From a virus, in the UHGV virus genome UHGV-0394577: a DNA stretch of 11,770 nt, one strand, 5' to 3'. Below are positions 3,809 through 11,770 of the stretch, in pieces (the stretch's first letter is position 1; every line of letters starts with the position of its first letter). The notes below the pieces were generated by a model. It saw nothing but the letters and a program-made list of their open reading frames with translations, had not been told where the DNA came from and did not search any database. A program made the translations under genes and the position numbers.

Positions 3809-4351
3809 ATGAAATCGCACCTGATGAACAAAAAAACTATGGCGCAAAGCTGCCGCGTAAGCGCCACTGCGTTCGATAAGTGGGGAGTAACTCCCGTTGA
3901 GCGTAAAGGCCGTGAGGCGTTTTATGATGTTGCTAGCGTGATAGACAATAGGGTTAACAATGCAATTAACCAGCTTACAAACGACAAAGGCGAGATTGAT
4001 GATGATGAACTTTTACGCGTAAGAATCAGATTAATGACGGCCCAGGCGGAAGCGCAGGAACTTAAAAACGAGCGCGAACGCGGCGAGGTGATTGATACAG
4101 AGTTTTGCATGTACGCGCTTTCAAAACTGGCAAGTCAGATTTCTTCAATCATGGACAGCCTCCCGCTTACTATGCAAAGGAACTTCCCACAGATGCCCCC
4201 CGCTATGCTGCATGGGCTTAAGAGGGAAGTAGTTAAAGCCTGTAATGCCAGTGCCAGAGTTGCCGACAACCTCCCACAGATACTGGCTGATTACTTGAAA
4301 GAAACAACCGGAAACGTACCGGAAAAGTTGCTACAGAAGAAAGGCGAGTAA
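3809..4351 (+). CDS. terminase small subunit, lambda Nu1-like
   Basis: Track ORF 3797..4351 begins at GTG; ATG 3809 follows a GGGGG SD. The middle and C-terminal regions resemble lambda Nu1 (RLMTAQAEAQELKNERERGEVIDTEFCMYALSKLASQISSIMDSLPLTMQRNFPQ; LKREVVKACNASA), while the N-terminal putative DNA-binding region is divergent. Confidence 0.85.
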   Translation: MKSHLMNKKTMAQSCRVSATAFDKWGVTPVERKGREAFYDVASVIDNRVNNAINQLTNDKGEIDDDELLRVRIRLMTAQAEAQELKNERERGEVIDTEFCMYALSKLASQISSIMDSLPLTMQRNFPQMPPAMLHGLKREVVKACNASARVADNLPQILADYLKETTGNVPEKLLQKKGE

Positions 4352-4888: not shown

Positions 4889-5108
4889 TACGTACGGATA
4901 TCGAGATAAAGACGGTTTTTTTACCCCACTGGGGAAAAGGTACGCACCTGAATCATCATTATCGTGATCAAGGGTATGTAAAGCCCACCAGCCTGATCAA
5001 CAGTTAACCGGAAAAAAAGCCAGGTATGGGGGGGTAGTGGTTAGCCACGAACAACGAACAAGCTGGACACCGCGCCCACTCTCACGCAGAGAAAAAATTA
5101 CCGTTTCG

Positions 5109-5236
5109 TAGTAGTTAACATGTTAACTACCTGATGAAGTGTTTTTATTGATTTTCCCTTTATGATTCATCTGGTTGCGTGCAAAAAATGTTAACTACCT
5201 TTTTGGTAAAAATGTTAACAGGGCAGCGGTTAACAT
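5109..5236. repeat. cluster of five GTTAAC-containing repeats (ATGTTAACTACCT twice)
   Basis: GTTAAC at about 5112, 5121, 5188, 5213 and 5228 within 125 bp of non-coding DNA; possible operator array. Confidence 0.4.
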
Positions 5237-5365
5237 TTAACCTGGCAAAAATTCCGGTAGGTGGTGATCCCCATATCGGGGAACATCCACCAGCTTCGTT
5301 TTTATAAATTAAACACCTGGGAAAATCAGACTCTGAATTGTGCATTTTTTCAGCAAATCATTTTA

Positions 5366-5385
5366 GTTATACGTTTGGTTATACG
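5366..5385. repeat. two direct GTTATACG repeats (12-bp spacing)
   Basis: GTTATACG at 5366-5373 and 5378-5385. Confidence 0.45.
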
Positions 5386-5468
5386 GTTTAAAAGTTGAAT
5401 CAGGAACATTCTTTTAAATCATTCAGTTACATGATCAATTAAACTACTCTCGTGCCGACCAAATTGCC

Positions 5469-5494
5469 CACCGGATATCACCGGAAAGCACCGA
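5469..5494. repeat. three direct CACCGGA repeats at 10-bp phasing
   Basis: CACCGGATATCACCGGAAAGCACCGA; the same dimer recurs at 5553-5569 and 7383-7399. Confidence 0.45.
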
Positions 5495-5509
5495 ATAAGA
5501 CAGGGATAA

Positions 5510-5540
5510 CCCGCTAATCACTTGATTGGCGGGTTTTTTT
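5510..5540 (+). terminator. rho-independent terminator (CCCGCTAATC / GATTGGCGGG stem + T7)
   Basis: 10-bp stem (one G-U pair), 4-nt loop, 7 T; sits between the two CACCGGA repeat sets upstream of int. Confidence 0.5.
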
Positions 5541-5552
5541 ATGGTTTTTAGT

Positions 5553-5569
5553 CACCGGATATCACCGGA
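5553..5569. repeat. CACCGGATATCACCGGA direct repeat (second copy)
   Basis: Identical 17-mer to 5469-5485. Confidence 0.45.
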
Positions 5570-5596
5570 TTTATAAGCTATCAGCCGGATTTTTTA

Positions 5597-5644
5597 GTTA
5601 TACGCTTAGTTATACGGGCTGGCGTATAACTAAAGCCGTATAAC
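5597..5644. promoter_or_regulatory. symmetric array of GTTATACG motifs (two direct then two inverted) just upstream of int
   Basis: GTTATACG at 5597 and 5609, CGTATAAC at 5623 and 5637, forming an imperfect palindrome of about 50 bp centred near 5620, 35-85 bp upstream of the int ATG. Candidate integrase arm-type or regulator binding sites. Confidence 0.45.
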
Positions 5645-5679
5645 TAAAACCCTGTTTTTTCGTGTGGAATCATAGACAT

Positions 5680-6921
5680 ATGGCGAGAAAAACAACCCAA
5701 TTAACCACAGTGCAGATCAAAGCAGCCAGGCCAGCGGAAAAGGAGTACACCCTACAGGACGGCGGGGGGCTTTTTCTCCTGGTCAAACCGTCCGGATCAA
5801 AACTCTGGAGATTTTCCTACTACCGACCATCGGACAAAAAAAGAATATTGCTGAGTTTTGGATCGCTTGAAGATGTTTCCCTGGCTGATGCCAGAAAACG
5901 CCGTAGCGAGTACAGGACGTTAATCAGTGCCGGAACTGACCCGCAGGACCACGAGAGGCAAAAAAGAGAGACAGAGGCCCGAAGACAAGGGAACACGTTC
6001 GAAAATGTGGCGGCGGCATGGTACCAGGTGAAAATCAGCCAGAATCTGGCCCCCAACACGATTAAAGACATCTGGAGATCGCTGGAAAAATATGTATTCC
6101 CGTTCATCGGTAACACGCCAATAGACACCCTGACCGCTCGCAGGTTTGTTGAGGTGCTTACCCCCATCAAGGAACGTGGCAACCTGGAAACACTCAAACG
6201 GGTTTTACAGCGAGTCAATGAAGTAATGGATTACGCCGCCAACAGTGGGCTGATCGATACCAATCCGGCTATGAATGTGCGTAAGGCGTTCCCCTCCCCT
6301 GTAAAAAAACATATGCCAACAATCCGCCCCGAGCAGTTGCCGGAGCTTATGCAGGCTTTATCAGTATCGGCAACAGAACGGCAGACCAGATTACTGATCG
6401 AATGGCAGTTACTGACCGTAACCCGTCCCGCCGAAGCGTCATCAACTCGGTGGGATGAAATCGACATGGACGCGAAGCGATGGACGATACCCGCCGGACG
6501 CATGAAGATGAGGCGTGATCACGTTATCCCGCTTTGTAGTCAGGCTATGGCGGTACTGGAGGCTATGAAACCAATCAGCCATCACCGCGATTACGTTTTC
6601 CCGAGCCTGAAAGACCCACGGCAGCCTATGAACAGCCAGACCGCAAACGCAGCATTGCGGCGGATGGGGTTTGGCGGGGTTCTGGTTTCTCACGGTATGC
6701 GCGCCATATTCAGCACCGCAGCGAACGAAGAAGGATTTGAGCCGGACGTAATAGAGGCCGCACTAGCCCACGTGGACACCAACGAAGTGAGACGGGCATA
6801 CAACCGGAGCAACTACATAGAAAAACGCATCGTGCTTATGCGCTGGTGGGGCGAATTTGTCGAGGCGGCGGCAACGGGCGTGACCCTTGCCAGTGGTAAA
6901 AGGGGTATTCGGGCCGTGTAG
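5680..6921 (+). CDS. int: tyrosine recombinase / integrase, P4-family
   Basis: Track ORF 5662..6921 begins at GTG; ATG at 5680 gives the N-terminus MARKTTQLTTVQIKAARPAEKEYTLQDGGGLFLLVKPSGSKLWRFSYY typical of P4-like integrases; C-terminal catalytic region with R...HVIPL...HGMR..F...A and a Y in RRAYNRSNY. Confidence 0.92.
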   Translation: MARKTTQLTTVQIKAARPAEKEYTLQDGGGLFLLVKPSGSKLWRFSYYRPSDKKRILLSFGSLEDVSLADARKRRSEYRTLISAGTDPQDHERQKRETEARRQGNTFENVAAAWYQVKISQNLAPNTIKDIWRSLEKYVFPFIGNTPIDTLTARRFVEVLTPIKERGNLETLKRVLQRVNEVMDYAANSGLIDTNPAMNVRKAFPSPVKKHMPTIRPEQLPELMQALSVSATERQTRLLIEWQLLTVTRPAEASSTRWDEIDMDAKRWTIPAGRMKMRRDHVIPLCSQAMAVLEAMKPISHHRDYVFPSLKDPRQPMNSQTANAALRRMGFGGVLVSHGMRAIFSTAANEEGFEPDVIEAALAHVDTNEVRRAYNRSNYIEKRIVLMRWWGEFVEAAATGVTLASGKRGIRAV

Positions 6922-7019
6922 CTGTACAGAAAACCAGTAAAAACTACGAAAACCATGTAAAACCGTCGTATAATTGCGGTTCTTGTTACGCCAGGGGATG
7001 CCTTCATGAGTCGGATAAT

Positions 7020-7250
7020 ATGCGGACAAATACAAACAGCAATTGCGACGGGCTGCAACTGGCCCTGATCGTTAAACATGAATTTTGGTCAACCTACGAT
7101 CCGGAGGACAGAACGACAGCCCCATCAAAAAGGCAGGTAGTAGATTTTCTGGTATCCCGTGGGACTTCCAGAAATTTGGCTGAGAGTATCGACAGGGTTG
7201 TAAGGCCCGTATCAATGAAGACCGGAGGCAGGCCAAAAAAATGGCGGTAA
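7020..7250 (+). CDS. hypothetical protein (76 aa)
   Basis: ORF followed by a strong terminator; weak RBS. An ATG at 7006 with a better SD is in another frame and stops after 20 codons, so the true start is uncertain. Confidence 0.35.
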   Translation: MRTNTNSNCDGLQLALIVKHEFWSTYDPEDRTTAPSKRQVVDFLVSRGTSRNLAESIDRVVRPVSMKTGGRPKKWR

Positions 7251-7262
7251 CAATCCTGAAAG

Positions 7263-7285
7263 CGGCAGAAATGCCGCTTTTTTTA
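7263..7285 (+). terminator. rho-independent terminator (GCGGCA-GAAA-TGCCGC + T7)
   Basis: Perfect 6-bp stem, GAAA loop and T-run 12 nt after the stop at 7250. Confidence 0.6.
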
Positions 7286-7314
7286 TAATTCCCTTTCAAA
7301 TCATCAACATAAAA

Positions 7315-7328
7315 AACGGTTATAACCG
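7315..7328. promoter_or_regulatory. perfect 14-bp palindrome ACGGTTATAACCGT upstream of alpA
   Basis: Related to the GTTATACG motif family found upstream of int; about 90 bp upstream of the alpA ATG. Confidence 0.35.
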
Positions 7329-7382
7329 TTTAAAAACGGTGGGAACTGTTTTTACCCATATTCGATGATTTACCGTATTTGT

Positions 7383-7399
7383 CACCGGAATACACCGGA
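7383..7399. repeat. CACCGGAATACACCGGA direct repeat (third copy of the CACCGGA dimer)
   Basis: Lies 19 bp upstream of the alpA start codon. Confidence 0.45.
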
Positions 7400-7417
7400 T
7401 TCACAAGGTAAATCACG

Positions 7418-7624
7418 ATGGAAGCAATCAAAAAAGTCATCTTTCGCCAGGAAGTAAAAAAACTTATCCACATCAAGGCAGACAGCACGCTGCAAAGCAT
7501 GATCAACGCCGGAGAATTCCCGCAGGGTTTTCGCGTTGGTTTACGCCGTCGAGGATGGTATGAGGATGACGTAATCGCCTGGATGAAAGAACGCGAACAG
7601 GAAGCACGCGGAACGGCTGCTTAA
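7418..7624 (+). CDS. alpA: AlpA/Vis-family phage regulatory protein (excisionase-like HTH)
   Basis: 68 aa; STLQSMINAGEFPQGFRVGLRRRGWYEDDVIAWMKER fits the AlpA-family pattern (FP, G.R..GW.E.EV..W); sits downstream of int as in P4-like and PICI elements. Confidence 0.75.
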   Translation: MEAIKKVIFRQEVKKLIHIKADSTLQSMINAGEFPQGFRVGLRRRGWYEDDVIAWMKEREQEARGTAA

Positions 7625-7656
7625 CGGGTATCACAGATATGACGAACACGAAAAAA

Positions 7657-7680
7657 GCGGCCCCGATATGGAGCCGCCTT
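7657..7680 (-). terminator. possible terminator for minus-strand transcripts (5-bp GC stem, then T6 on the minus strand)
   Basis: AAAAAAGCGGC...GCCGCC on the plus strand; on the minus strand the stem is followed by TTTTTT. Weak stem with a long loop. Confidence 0.3.
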
Positions 7681-8000
7681 TCTGAACAATTAACCCGCTG
7701 CGCATTATGTATCAACAAACATAAGCCAGGGCATGATAGCCGCTATCAGGCTGGTGGGCAATGCTATCAGTCTGTTTCAGTGCGTTTCCATAACTGCGAA
7801 GCTCTCTCCTTTGATGAGTATTCTTTAAGGTACTTCTCAAGGGCAAAAGAACACGGCGCGAATCGTTCTGATTCATGCTCTTTCTTTCTGCGTCGTCTTT
7901 TTCGTGCAGGTGATGTTTTTTTGGTTGATTCTTCGTTGGTCATTGTGTGCGCCTGTAAAGCAATGCGCCGGAGTTCCTCACACCACGGCGCTGATAGTTT

Positions 8001-8524: not shown

Positions 8525-8984
8525 AAACCGCTTGCAAAAAATTATAACGGGGCTGTATGCTTCCCCCGTCGCCCACATGGCGACCGGGTTTGACAGCCTG
8601 AATACTGTAGCGGACAGCCGCTTACATTCCGATATGCGGTTTTTTTGTGTCCGTAAACCTACCCATACCCGCATTATGGCGGGGCGTAACGGGGGAGCCT
8701 TTGCGCTCGCTGGTTCCTACAGTACCAGTCTGTCAACCCTGTTACGTCTCGCCACCATGTTTGACAGCGTAGTAGCGAGACTCCTTAAAATTACTGTAGG
8801 AGCCTTTCACATGGCTGTATCCGCACGCCCTTACTTTGTCTGGCGCTTTATGCAGTGCCACCACAGCAGCATTGATGTATTCACCGTTACCGCAGCCACT
8901 GAACGCGAAGCACGCGCCCAGCTGCCGCACGCACATCTGATTTTTGTCGCCCGTATTCGTCAGGGGAAAACCTATGCACAATAA
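8517..8984 (+). CDS. Ash-family-like protein, long paralog
   Basis: 155 aa from ATG 8517 (SD AGGGGT); start overlaps the previous stop (ATGCGTAA); C-terminus YFVWRFMQC...VTAATEREARAQLP...IFVARIRQG is homologous to the upstream ORF. Confidence 0.5.
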   Translation: MRKNRLQKIITGLYASPVAHMATGFDSLNTVADSRLHSDMRFFCVRKPTHTRIMAGRNGGAFALAGSYSTSLSTLLRLATMFDSVVARLLKITVGAFHMAVSARPYFVWRFMQCHHSSIDVFTVTAATEREARAQLPHAHLIFVARIRQGKTYAQ

Positions 8985-11718: not shown

Positions 11719-11770
11719 GGGGAGGCACAACTCAAAACTTTTTAAACGAGGGGGTAAAAATAAATATGCA

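Follow-up and report, generated by a model that had tools for sequence, protein, structure and literature searches.

The repeats upstream of the integrase gene (int) and of alpA in the DNA analyzed here (the window, 11,770 bases in total) probably mark the attP of a phage-inducible chromosomal island (PICI) that integrates into tRNA-Pro. We propose that its GTTATACG units are arm sites for the N-terminal domain of the integrase (Int) and that its CACCGGA-type boxes are sites for AlpA, a reading to which we assign a probability of about 0.8. An earlier note on this DNA had suggested AlpA/Vis or integrase arm-type arrays; comparative evidence supports both, with one family most plausibly belonging to each protein. 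The search for the motifs in related elements that the note had named indicated that both families are conserved across relatives.

By its genes and their order, the window is an EcCICFT073-like PICI with a P4-type int-alpA module. Its open reading frames (ORFs) encode an SSB, PerC, a lambda-E-type major capsid protein, a lambda-D-type decoration protein, a Nu1-like small terminase, a P4-family integrase, a 68-aa AlpA-like helix-turn-helix protein, a DUF4222 protein and a D5-type primase, and Rfam detected a C4-type antisense RNA together with its target. This gene set and order are those of EcCICFT073, an experimentally studied Escherichia coli island. When the end of the window was joined to its start, 770 of 770 bases across the junction were collinear with the integrated E. 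coli island L001; the window therefore represents the element in circularly permuted form. Matches to the window were present in 481 out of 5,426 complete E. coli genomes, with homology beginning at 5447 and overlapping tRNA-Pro; the integration locus in E. coli is the tRNA-Pro gene between yejM and yejO. Comparison of the whole window with a phage collection gave trivial short matches only. An Int-based scan of viral contigs yielded 80 loci, almost all ending exactly at the start of int and thus without attP, and we therefore used these loci for alpA upstream regions only.

The anatomy of the region and its att structure can be read directly from the alignments. Aligning attL, attR and attP (the window versus the integrated island L001) placed the 17-bp core at 5447-5463; a tRNA gene search of the window itself found none. 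In the same alignment, all sequence to the right of the core went to attL and all sequence to the left went to attR, including the GTTATACG copies at 5366 and 5378. As aligned, the repeats sit inside the intact attP of a circularized island that integrates into tRNA-Pro. This attP, in which two GTTATACG copies precede the core and four follow it, goes beyond the earlier note, as do a terminator at 5508-5541 and additional boxes at 5489 and 5583 (Table 1). All 16 aligned relatives had the terminator at this place; the base of its stem was rich in G+C and the upper part varied. The native tRNA-Pro terminator was found beyond attR. After integration, the element-borne terminator takes over from the native one and parts the tRNA gene from int. 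A scan for the IHF consensus returned one exact match in the terminator loop (5515-5527) and a one-mismatch site in the P arm (5417-5429); neither appeared by eye to be conserved in the aligned relatives, and both are weak leads.

Table 1. Features of the int-alpA region, with their positions in the window.
Feature	Position	Strand	Description
P-arm pair, proposed integrase arm-type sites	5366..5385	+	GTTATACG at 5366 and 5378
att core	5447..5463	+	CTCTCGTGCCGACCAAA; 3' end of tRNA-Pro (proL) plus 2 bases
Core-proximal array, proposed AlpA (RDF) sites	5469..5495	+	CACCGGA at 5469, CACCGGA at 5479, CACCGAA at 5489
Intrinsic terminator	5508..5541	+	Hairpin with 12-bp stem, then T-run
Arm-proximal array, proposed AlpA (RDF) sites	5553..5589	+	CACCGGA at 5553 and 5563; degenerate box at 5573; AGCCGGA at 5583
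P'-arm direct pair, proposed integrase arm-type sites	5597..5616	+	GTTATACG at 5597 and 5609
P'-arm inverted pair, proposed integrase arm-type sites	5623..5644	-	GTTATACG at 5623 and 5637
int	5680..6921	+	P4-family tyrosine integrase; Pfam Arm-DNA-bind_3, Phage_int_M, Phage_integrase
Tandem palindromes	7315-7328, 7335-7348	no strand	Two copies of ACGGT-N4-ACCGT; third, separate motif
Box dimer, proposed AlpA autoregulatory site	7383..7399	+	CACCGGA-N3-CACCGGA; ends 18 nt before the alpA ATG
alpA	7418..7624	+	68-aa winged helix-turn-helix protein; excisionase/MerR-like fold (AF2 model)

The GTTATACG family was confined to this region: six exact copies occurred, all within 5366-5644, and there were no further exact copies anywhere in the 11,770 bases. 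Their order of two direct, two direct and two inverted copies is the one that the earlier note had described, at the same positions, with a period of 12 bp in the direct pairs and 14 bp in the inverted pair. The core is flanked on both sides, by two direct copies in the P arm and by two direct plus two inverted copies in the P' arm. The first P-arm copy begins 81 bp ahead of the core, and the P' copies lie approximately 150-190 bp to its right, directly before int. Integrated islands have the P-arm pair as well: in both L001 and E. coli C5 it lies at attR, 81 bp before CTCTCGTG, and in C5 it has the island's own variant, GCTACACG, the same as in the attL copies of C5. Twenty relatives, with integrases 47-82% identical, kept the P' layout, consisting of an invariant TTTAG, two direct units and two to four inverted units that end at or near the int ATG. 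Replication iterons were considered as an identity for the repeats and rejected: the copies lie on either side of the att core, integration parts them into an attL and an attR group, and the primase gene is more than 4 kb away.

Comparison among relatives further revealed that the arm unit itself differs from element to element, with all copies of one element changing in concert on both arms. The unit was GTTATAC(G) in the window and in E. albertii, Pectobacterium and Brenneria, GCTA(T/C)AC in Pantoea, Edwardsiella and some E. coli, GGACTAG (class B) in Erwinia, Citrobacter and Rosenbergiella, GGCATA in one Brenneria and GTAACATC in Shewanella. The int start codon at 5680 agrees with the RefSeq annotation in L001, and residues 1 to approximately 100 of the encoded integrase form an arm-DNA-binding domain (Pfam PF13356, E 3e-23) that matches the N-domains of PDB entries 3ju0 and 3jtz. 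Between motif classes, integrases shared 49-63% identity over residues 1-70 versus 69-92% over residues 110-413, a range that leaves out the distant Shewanella integrase L020 (approximately 50% identical to all others over residues 110-413). Subtracting identity over the rest of the protein from N-domain identity gave a mean of -1.6 points for integrases of one motif class and -16.0 points for integrases of different classes. Likewise, 17 columns discriminating class A from class B fell in residues 1-110 and one in residues 111-413. The clearest pair was Pantoea versus Citrobacter, whose integrases were 53% identical in the N-domain and 92% identical in the rest. The motif variant thus tracks the N-domain of the integrase and not the rest of the protein, as expected if the N-domain reads GTTATACG-type units. 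Given this covariation and the flanking of the core, we read the GTTATACG units as putative integrase arm-type sites.

A different role for the P' copies, in which the inverted GTTATACG quartet (5592-5650) acts mainly as an RNA hairpin in the int leader, causing attenuation or a block to translation, seems unlikely to us. The RNA of 5588-5665 does fold stably (-28.1 kcal/mol, z = -5.4), and a T-run comes next, at 5654-5659; moreover, Piazzolla in 2006 reportedly observed premature termination or short 5' int transcripts in P4 lysogens. However, two more copies lie 230 bp off in the other arm, which ends up at the opposite end of the island once it has integrated and in which such a hairpin cannot form; a hairpin explains neither these P-arm copies nor the covariation of the motif with the integrase N-domain. 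The 12-bp and 14-bp periods also force bulges in the stem, and P4 has just one inverted copy. Under the arm-site reading, a leader hairpin could be a secondary consequence of the arm sites.

The covariation extends to the DNA. Pantoea and Citrobacter were 80-93% identical between the tRNA and the boxes; identity dropped to 56-66% across the arm repeats plus roughly the first 85 int codons and then recovered to 81-91%. This profile is that of a swap, between L003 and the Citrobacter locus L008, of a cassette of approximately 300 bp comprising the arm repeats and approximately 85 int codons. Islands at the one tRNA-Pro site, with a common core and catalytic domains 90-92% identical, carry the different arm codes GTTATAC, GGACTAG and GGCATA. 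We tentatively suggest that the approximately 300 bp of arm sites plus the first approximately 85 int codons constitute an exchangeable specificity cassette, that orthogonal arm codes insulate satellites and that AlpA and its boxes perhaps behave likewise, a set of ideas that we hold with considerably less confidence than the assignment of the arm sites themselves. If true, arm codes would shield co-resident or tandem satellites from one another's integrases, and if the same logic covers AlpA and the phased boxes, each PICI lineage may possess a private two-key excision system.

The second family was likewise distinct from background. CACCGGA occurred 11 times in the window versus 1.26 expected, a count that none of 200 shuffles reached. 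Dimers of the form CACCGGA-N3-CACCGGA (two or fewer mismatches) began at 5469, 5479 (one mismatch), 5553 and 7383, versus 0.07 expected; the three 10-bp phased dimers listed in the earlier note (5469, 5553 and 7383) were all among them, far above chance. Isolated copies of CACCGGA at 849, 1240, 8990, 9409 and 10667 were all apparently within coding sequence and had no phased partner. Short repeats are, as a general caveat, common in AT-rich intergenic DNA, and both families might be chance or neutral duplications without function; we consider this to have next to no likelihood given the shuffle statistics and the conservation of positions across genera with concerted changes in sequence.

Both box arrays at att fall between the core (ending at 5463) and the first P' arm site (5597). 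In an alignment of 16 tRNA-Pro relatives, the box columns were kept, three of them by the core and three or four before the arm sites. The CGG core of the box was retained in these columns, and the last box, xxCCGGA, was nearly invariant; in the window this is the AGCCGGA at 5583-5589, the box best conserved in relatives, with CGG(A) invariant or nearly so. Upstream of alpA, 25 out of 35 distinct sequences contained a 10- or 11-bp phased YCG[GT] pair just ahead of the ribosome-binding site, and one relative had a triple box; random 70-nt windows from the same loci contained a phased pair in 1.1 +/- 1.0. A clear phased pair was missing from the remaining 10 out of 35 alpA upstream sequences. 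No CCGG-type boxes were seen by eye in the att and alpA upstream regions of the Shewanella relatives, whose AlpA is 35% identical. Within the Enterobacterales, the boxes and the helix-turn-helix of AlpA are both conserved, which fits AlpA as the binder and does not discriminate. Sites for recombination directionality factors (RDFs) such as Xis, Apl, Cox and Vis are direct repeats spaced approximately one helical turn apart, found at att and at a promoter (PMC7498355), and 10-bp phased direct repeats at both att and alpA therefore bear the signature of RDF sites (PMC7498355). From this phasing and placement, we read the CACCGGA-type boxes as candidate AlpA sites for excision and autoregulation; it is on comparative grounds of this kind that we infer which protein binds which family.

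In Gram-negative PICIs, AlpA is the master switch of induction. The protein encoded here matched the known profiles below cut-off (Pfam Phage_AlpA, E 0.0037; PDB phmmer, E 0.055), and a search with NCBIfam profiles gave no match. Some source records name close homologues of the protein "AlpA family". Because the homologue search returned close E. coli homologues only, structure prediction was run on a shallow alignment; the resulting AF2 model had a pLDDT of 81 and the beta-alpha-alpha-beta-beta-alpha order of a winged helix. Its best structural match was the GIsul2 excisionase (8c3t; TM 0.74/0.87, rmsd 1.3 A); BldC, MerR-family regulators and Pukovnik Xis came next. The Foldseek E-values were weak for so short a protein.

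This marginal family membership by sequence leaves room for the boxes to be bound by something else, whether a second DNA-binding surface of the integrase, the product of the 76-aa ORF at 7020-7250, which has no known domain and is conserved beside int in E. coli relatives, or a host protein. We regard any of these as improbable. The boxes also occur directly upstream of alpA, where an integrase has no recombination role, and they are 10-bp phased direct repeats, as for RDFs. Furthermore, EcCICFT073, which has another AlpA allele, has another phased box; the ORF at 7020-7250 varies or is missing in relatives that retain the boxes; and a host factor leaves the element-specific box sequences unexplained.

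More remote still is the idea that AlpA acts as a processive antiterminator loaded at the boxes, so that transcription from the tRNA-Pro promoter would pass the terminator at 5508-5541 and reach int. The boxes do flank an intrinsic terminator that lies between a strong tRNA promoter and int, and earlier work, as described in PMC6092414, suggested that AlpA controls int in a P4-like prophage. The AlpA of Pseudomonas aeruginosa, however, is a larger, Q-like protein whose helix-turn-helix includes residues 128-142, and one molecule of it binds a single 6-bp element between the -35 and -10 elements (PMC9371919). By contrast, the protein encoded in the window has 68 aa, compared with approximately 150 aa or more for Q-like AlpA, and is a winged helix-turn-helix protein with a predicted excisionase fold, and its proposed boxes are repeated and lie outside any recognizable promoter, the scan described below having found none around the att arrays.

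With Int on the arm sites and AlpA on the boxes, the region could work as follows. Int molecules would bridge the GTTATACG arm sites to the core, building the recombination complex that integrates the island at tRNA-Pro. The right-hand GTTATACG sites cover the probable int promoter and leader, so that Int would repress its own gene. Upon induction, AlpA would be made and would cooperatively occupy the phased boxes in the int-side arm, which becomes attL once the island has integrated. There, it would bend the arm and direct Int towards excision, and it would probably also affect int transcription; on the dimer at 7383-7399, it would act on its own promoter, giving autoregulation. We infer the bending, and likewise the direction of each regulatory effect, from the arrangement of the sites.

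Regulation of int is the weakest step of this scheme. The only conserved promoter-like hexamers upstream of int were TTTACA in most relatives (CTATCA in the window) and, 17 nt on, TACGCT; they are overlapped by the last box and the first P' arm sites. Int and AlpA bound over these hexamers would probably repress int, as P4 Int and Vis are reported to do. A simple sigma-70 scan of 5000-7700 found no promoter, and the positions of Pint and PalpA are therefore tentative readings of weak hexamers. In EcCICFT073, AlpA turns on the promoter of its own gene and triggers excision and replication (PMC6092414). A Pint reporter of that island was unchanged by AlpA (PMC6092414), which makes regulation of int by AlpA uncertain.

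Two tandem palindromes farther upstream of alpA constitute a third motif. The earlier note had pointed to the palindrome ACGGTTATAACCGT at 7315-7328 as related to the GTTATACG family; the palindrome is indeed there, but the kinship did not hold. Conservation in E. coli relatives fell on the half-sites of ACGGT-N4-ACCGT, and the TTATAA-like center varied (GTAT, GGGT, GGAT). Other genera lacked the palindrome upstream of alpA. Perhaps the tandem palindromes are an operator for another regulator of alpA.

Taken together, these results provide a concrete map of the recombination and control region of tRNA-Pro satellites that are widespread in E. coli and other Enterobacterales. They offer a computational answer to a question raised by Mageeney et al. 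(2023) for related PICIs, namely whether a doubled attP motif is read by the arm domain of the integrase or by AlpA, and the boxes would be, to our knowledge, the first candidate AlpA operator sequences for Gram-negative PICIs. The candidate sites could guide work on triggering by helper phages and on engineering or blocking island mobility. Three proposals drawn from sequence comparison are modestly new: the use of covariation to match each family with a protein, a cassette in which arm sites and N-domain are exchanged together, and the candidate AlpA operators.

The arrangement of integrase arm sites with RDF sites is itself, by analogy, already known from the attP of phage P4. The P4 annotation "attP arm sequence repeat" marks two direct copies, a tRNA-derived core, two direct copies and one inverted copy, and the order in the window is the same. 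P4, like the window, encodes a P4-family integrase with an arm-binding domain and, downstream of it, a small winged helix-turn-helix protein of the AlpA/Vis type. Work cited in PMC2603039 and PMC7286903 is described there as showing that P4 Vis binds attP and is needed for excision and that Vis and Int repress Pint. The P4 arm units are 12 bp, with the left pair approximately 75 bp from the core and the P' pair at 3942-3965, and 10-bp phased TCCG boxes lie between the core and the arm sites, a likeness of layout and not site by site. The two elements differ in the arm motif (TGGGGGCA in P4 versus GTTATACG in the window), in the core (leuX versus proL) and in the inverted copies (one in P4, over the int ATG, versus two in the window). 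In addition, unlike P4, the window has an element-borne terminator between its two box arrays, and the element is a PICI, with a major capsid protein E, decoration protein D, Nu1-like small terminase and PerC, and not a P4-type satellite.

Helper-embedded PICIs (HE-PICIs) also resemble the window in layout. Mageeney et al. (2023) described HE-PICIs with a doubled 12-bp motif in attP, placed 81 bp upstream of the att center and again 132 bp downstream of it (PMC10111431). They did not find the motif in other PICIs, and they considered the arm domain of Int, AlpA or an unknown protein as its binder (PMC10111431). The resemblance lies in the int-alpA module, in the doubled motif 81 bp upstream and in a second doubled copy, of the same orientation, downstream. 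However, their motif, TGTATTGC, differs from GTTATACG, and in the window the downstream copy lies at approximately 150 bp and is followed by an inverted pair; here, covariation points to the integrase N-domain as the probable reader. The dual-purpose RDFs Apl of phage 186 and Cox of P2 also have direct repeats as their sites, spaced 10-11 bp apart and found both at att and in a promoter region (PMC7498355), as we propose for AlpA. Apl and Cox act on a lysis-lysogeny switch between face-to-face promoters, whereas the extra site in the window precedes the RDF's own gene, and the effect reported for the homologous AlpA of EcCICFT073 is activation (PMC6092414).

EcCICFT073 is the most informative contrast. 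Its gene order and packaging module are those of the window; each of its ends likewise bears a doubled arm motif, and phased boxes again occur within the att arms as well as upstream of alpA. It differs in its int and alpA alleles and in its integration site, between roxA and phoQ; its arm motif is GGTGTAGTTAAT, and its box is ACAAC, with boxes on both arms and on the opposite strand. For chains of ACAA[CGA] phased at exactly 10 bp, EcCICFT073 gave six in the spacer between int and alpA, four in attL and three in attR, versus 0.01 expected. No CCGG-type chains were found in EcCICFT073, and no ACAA chains were found in the window. Thus, the box sequence appears to change with the AlpA allele, as judged mainly from this one contrasting element together with the apparent absence of CCGG-type boxes in Shewanella.

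Joining position 11770 to position 1 gave a junction that was identical at 770 out of 770 positions to, and collinear with, the integrated island of E. coli OkiPb01678. It follows that the 11,770-bp window holds the whole element, in circular or permuted form, and that its attP is intact. Among integrated E. coli islands, the closest one (L001 14016-22770) spans only ~8.7 kb. Its int-alpA segment is 97% identical to that of the window and its att arms are identical. The genes for the capsid, the decoration protein and the small terminase, all three carried by the window, are missing from this island; the packaging module is therefore gained or lost inside a single lineage.

A third repeat family, ATGTTAAC, lies between the P arm and the packaging genes, with five copies found against 0.41 expected; two of the five form an overlapping palindrome. 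This family might represent a terminase/cos-type or other regulatory site. Upstream of alpA, at a distance of ~70-100 bp, two AACGGT-N4-ACCGTT palindromes stand in tandem. In the E. coli relatives, their centres vary and their half-sites are conserved, and the palindromes were absent in relatives from other genera. They are a candidate operator for whatever couples the helper phage to alpA expression. Downstream of alpA, the C4 antisense RNA and its a1/b1 target constitute an RNA immunity module of the P1/P7/P4 type. Only two exact matches to the IHF consensus WATCARNNNNTTR occurred across the whole window; by eye, conservation in relatives was not apparent for the two IHF-like sites tabulated here.

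Features of the window, with strand where assigned
Feature	Position	Strand	Remarks
YCGG box pair, 11-bp phased	4307-4323		within 3' end of Nu1-like terminase gene
ATGTTAAC repeats	5114-5236		five copies
Overlapping palindrome of ATGTTAAC copies	5114-5127		
IHF-like site, one mismatch	5417-5429	+	P arm
IHF consensus, exact match	5515-5527	-	upper stem and loop of terminator hairpin
AACGGT-N4-ACCGTT palindromes	7315-7348		two in tandem
C4 antisense RNA (71.7 bits) and a1/b1 target (46.8 bits, barely over the gathering score)	8555-8604 and 8672-8759		Rfam

Phased boxes also turned up elsewhere. The additional YCGG pair in the terminase gene is probably due to chance, because random sequence of the same composition, generated with a first-order Markov model, gives one to three such pairs. 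Upstream of alpA in the IMG/VR relative 2703718821_000013, CACCGGAATA occurs three times consecutively rather than twice, a clean duplication of the 10-bp box unit. EcCICFT073 carries six ACAAC-type boxes at an exact spacing of 10 bp (L168 4188-4243), which start 28 bp past the int stop codon and ~290 bp upstream of alpA, and it has further boxes closer to alpA.

Its six-box array is longer than the array in the window, and at the place equivalent to that of the ATGTTAAC family EcCICFT073 has a different repeat, a triple (TAACCCGTTGAT...). The tRNA fragment at attR carries a small deletion both in L001, the closest integrated E. coli island (22740-22760; CTCTCGTG--GACCA), and in E. coli C5 (L167 reverse-complemented, about 14230-14250; CTCTCGTGCC-----AAAAA). 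In PICIs, tRNA-Pro attR fragments were reported to show 'damage' (Mageeney et al. 2023, PMC10111431), and the deletions in these two islands agree with that pattern.
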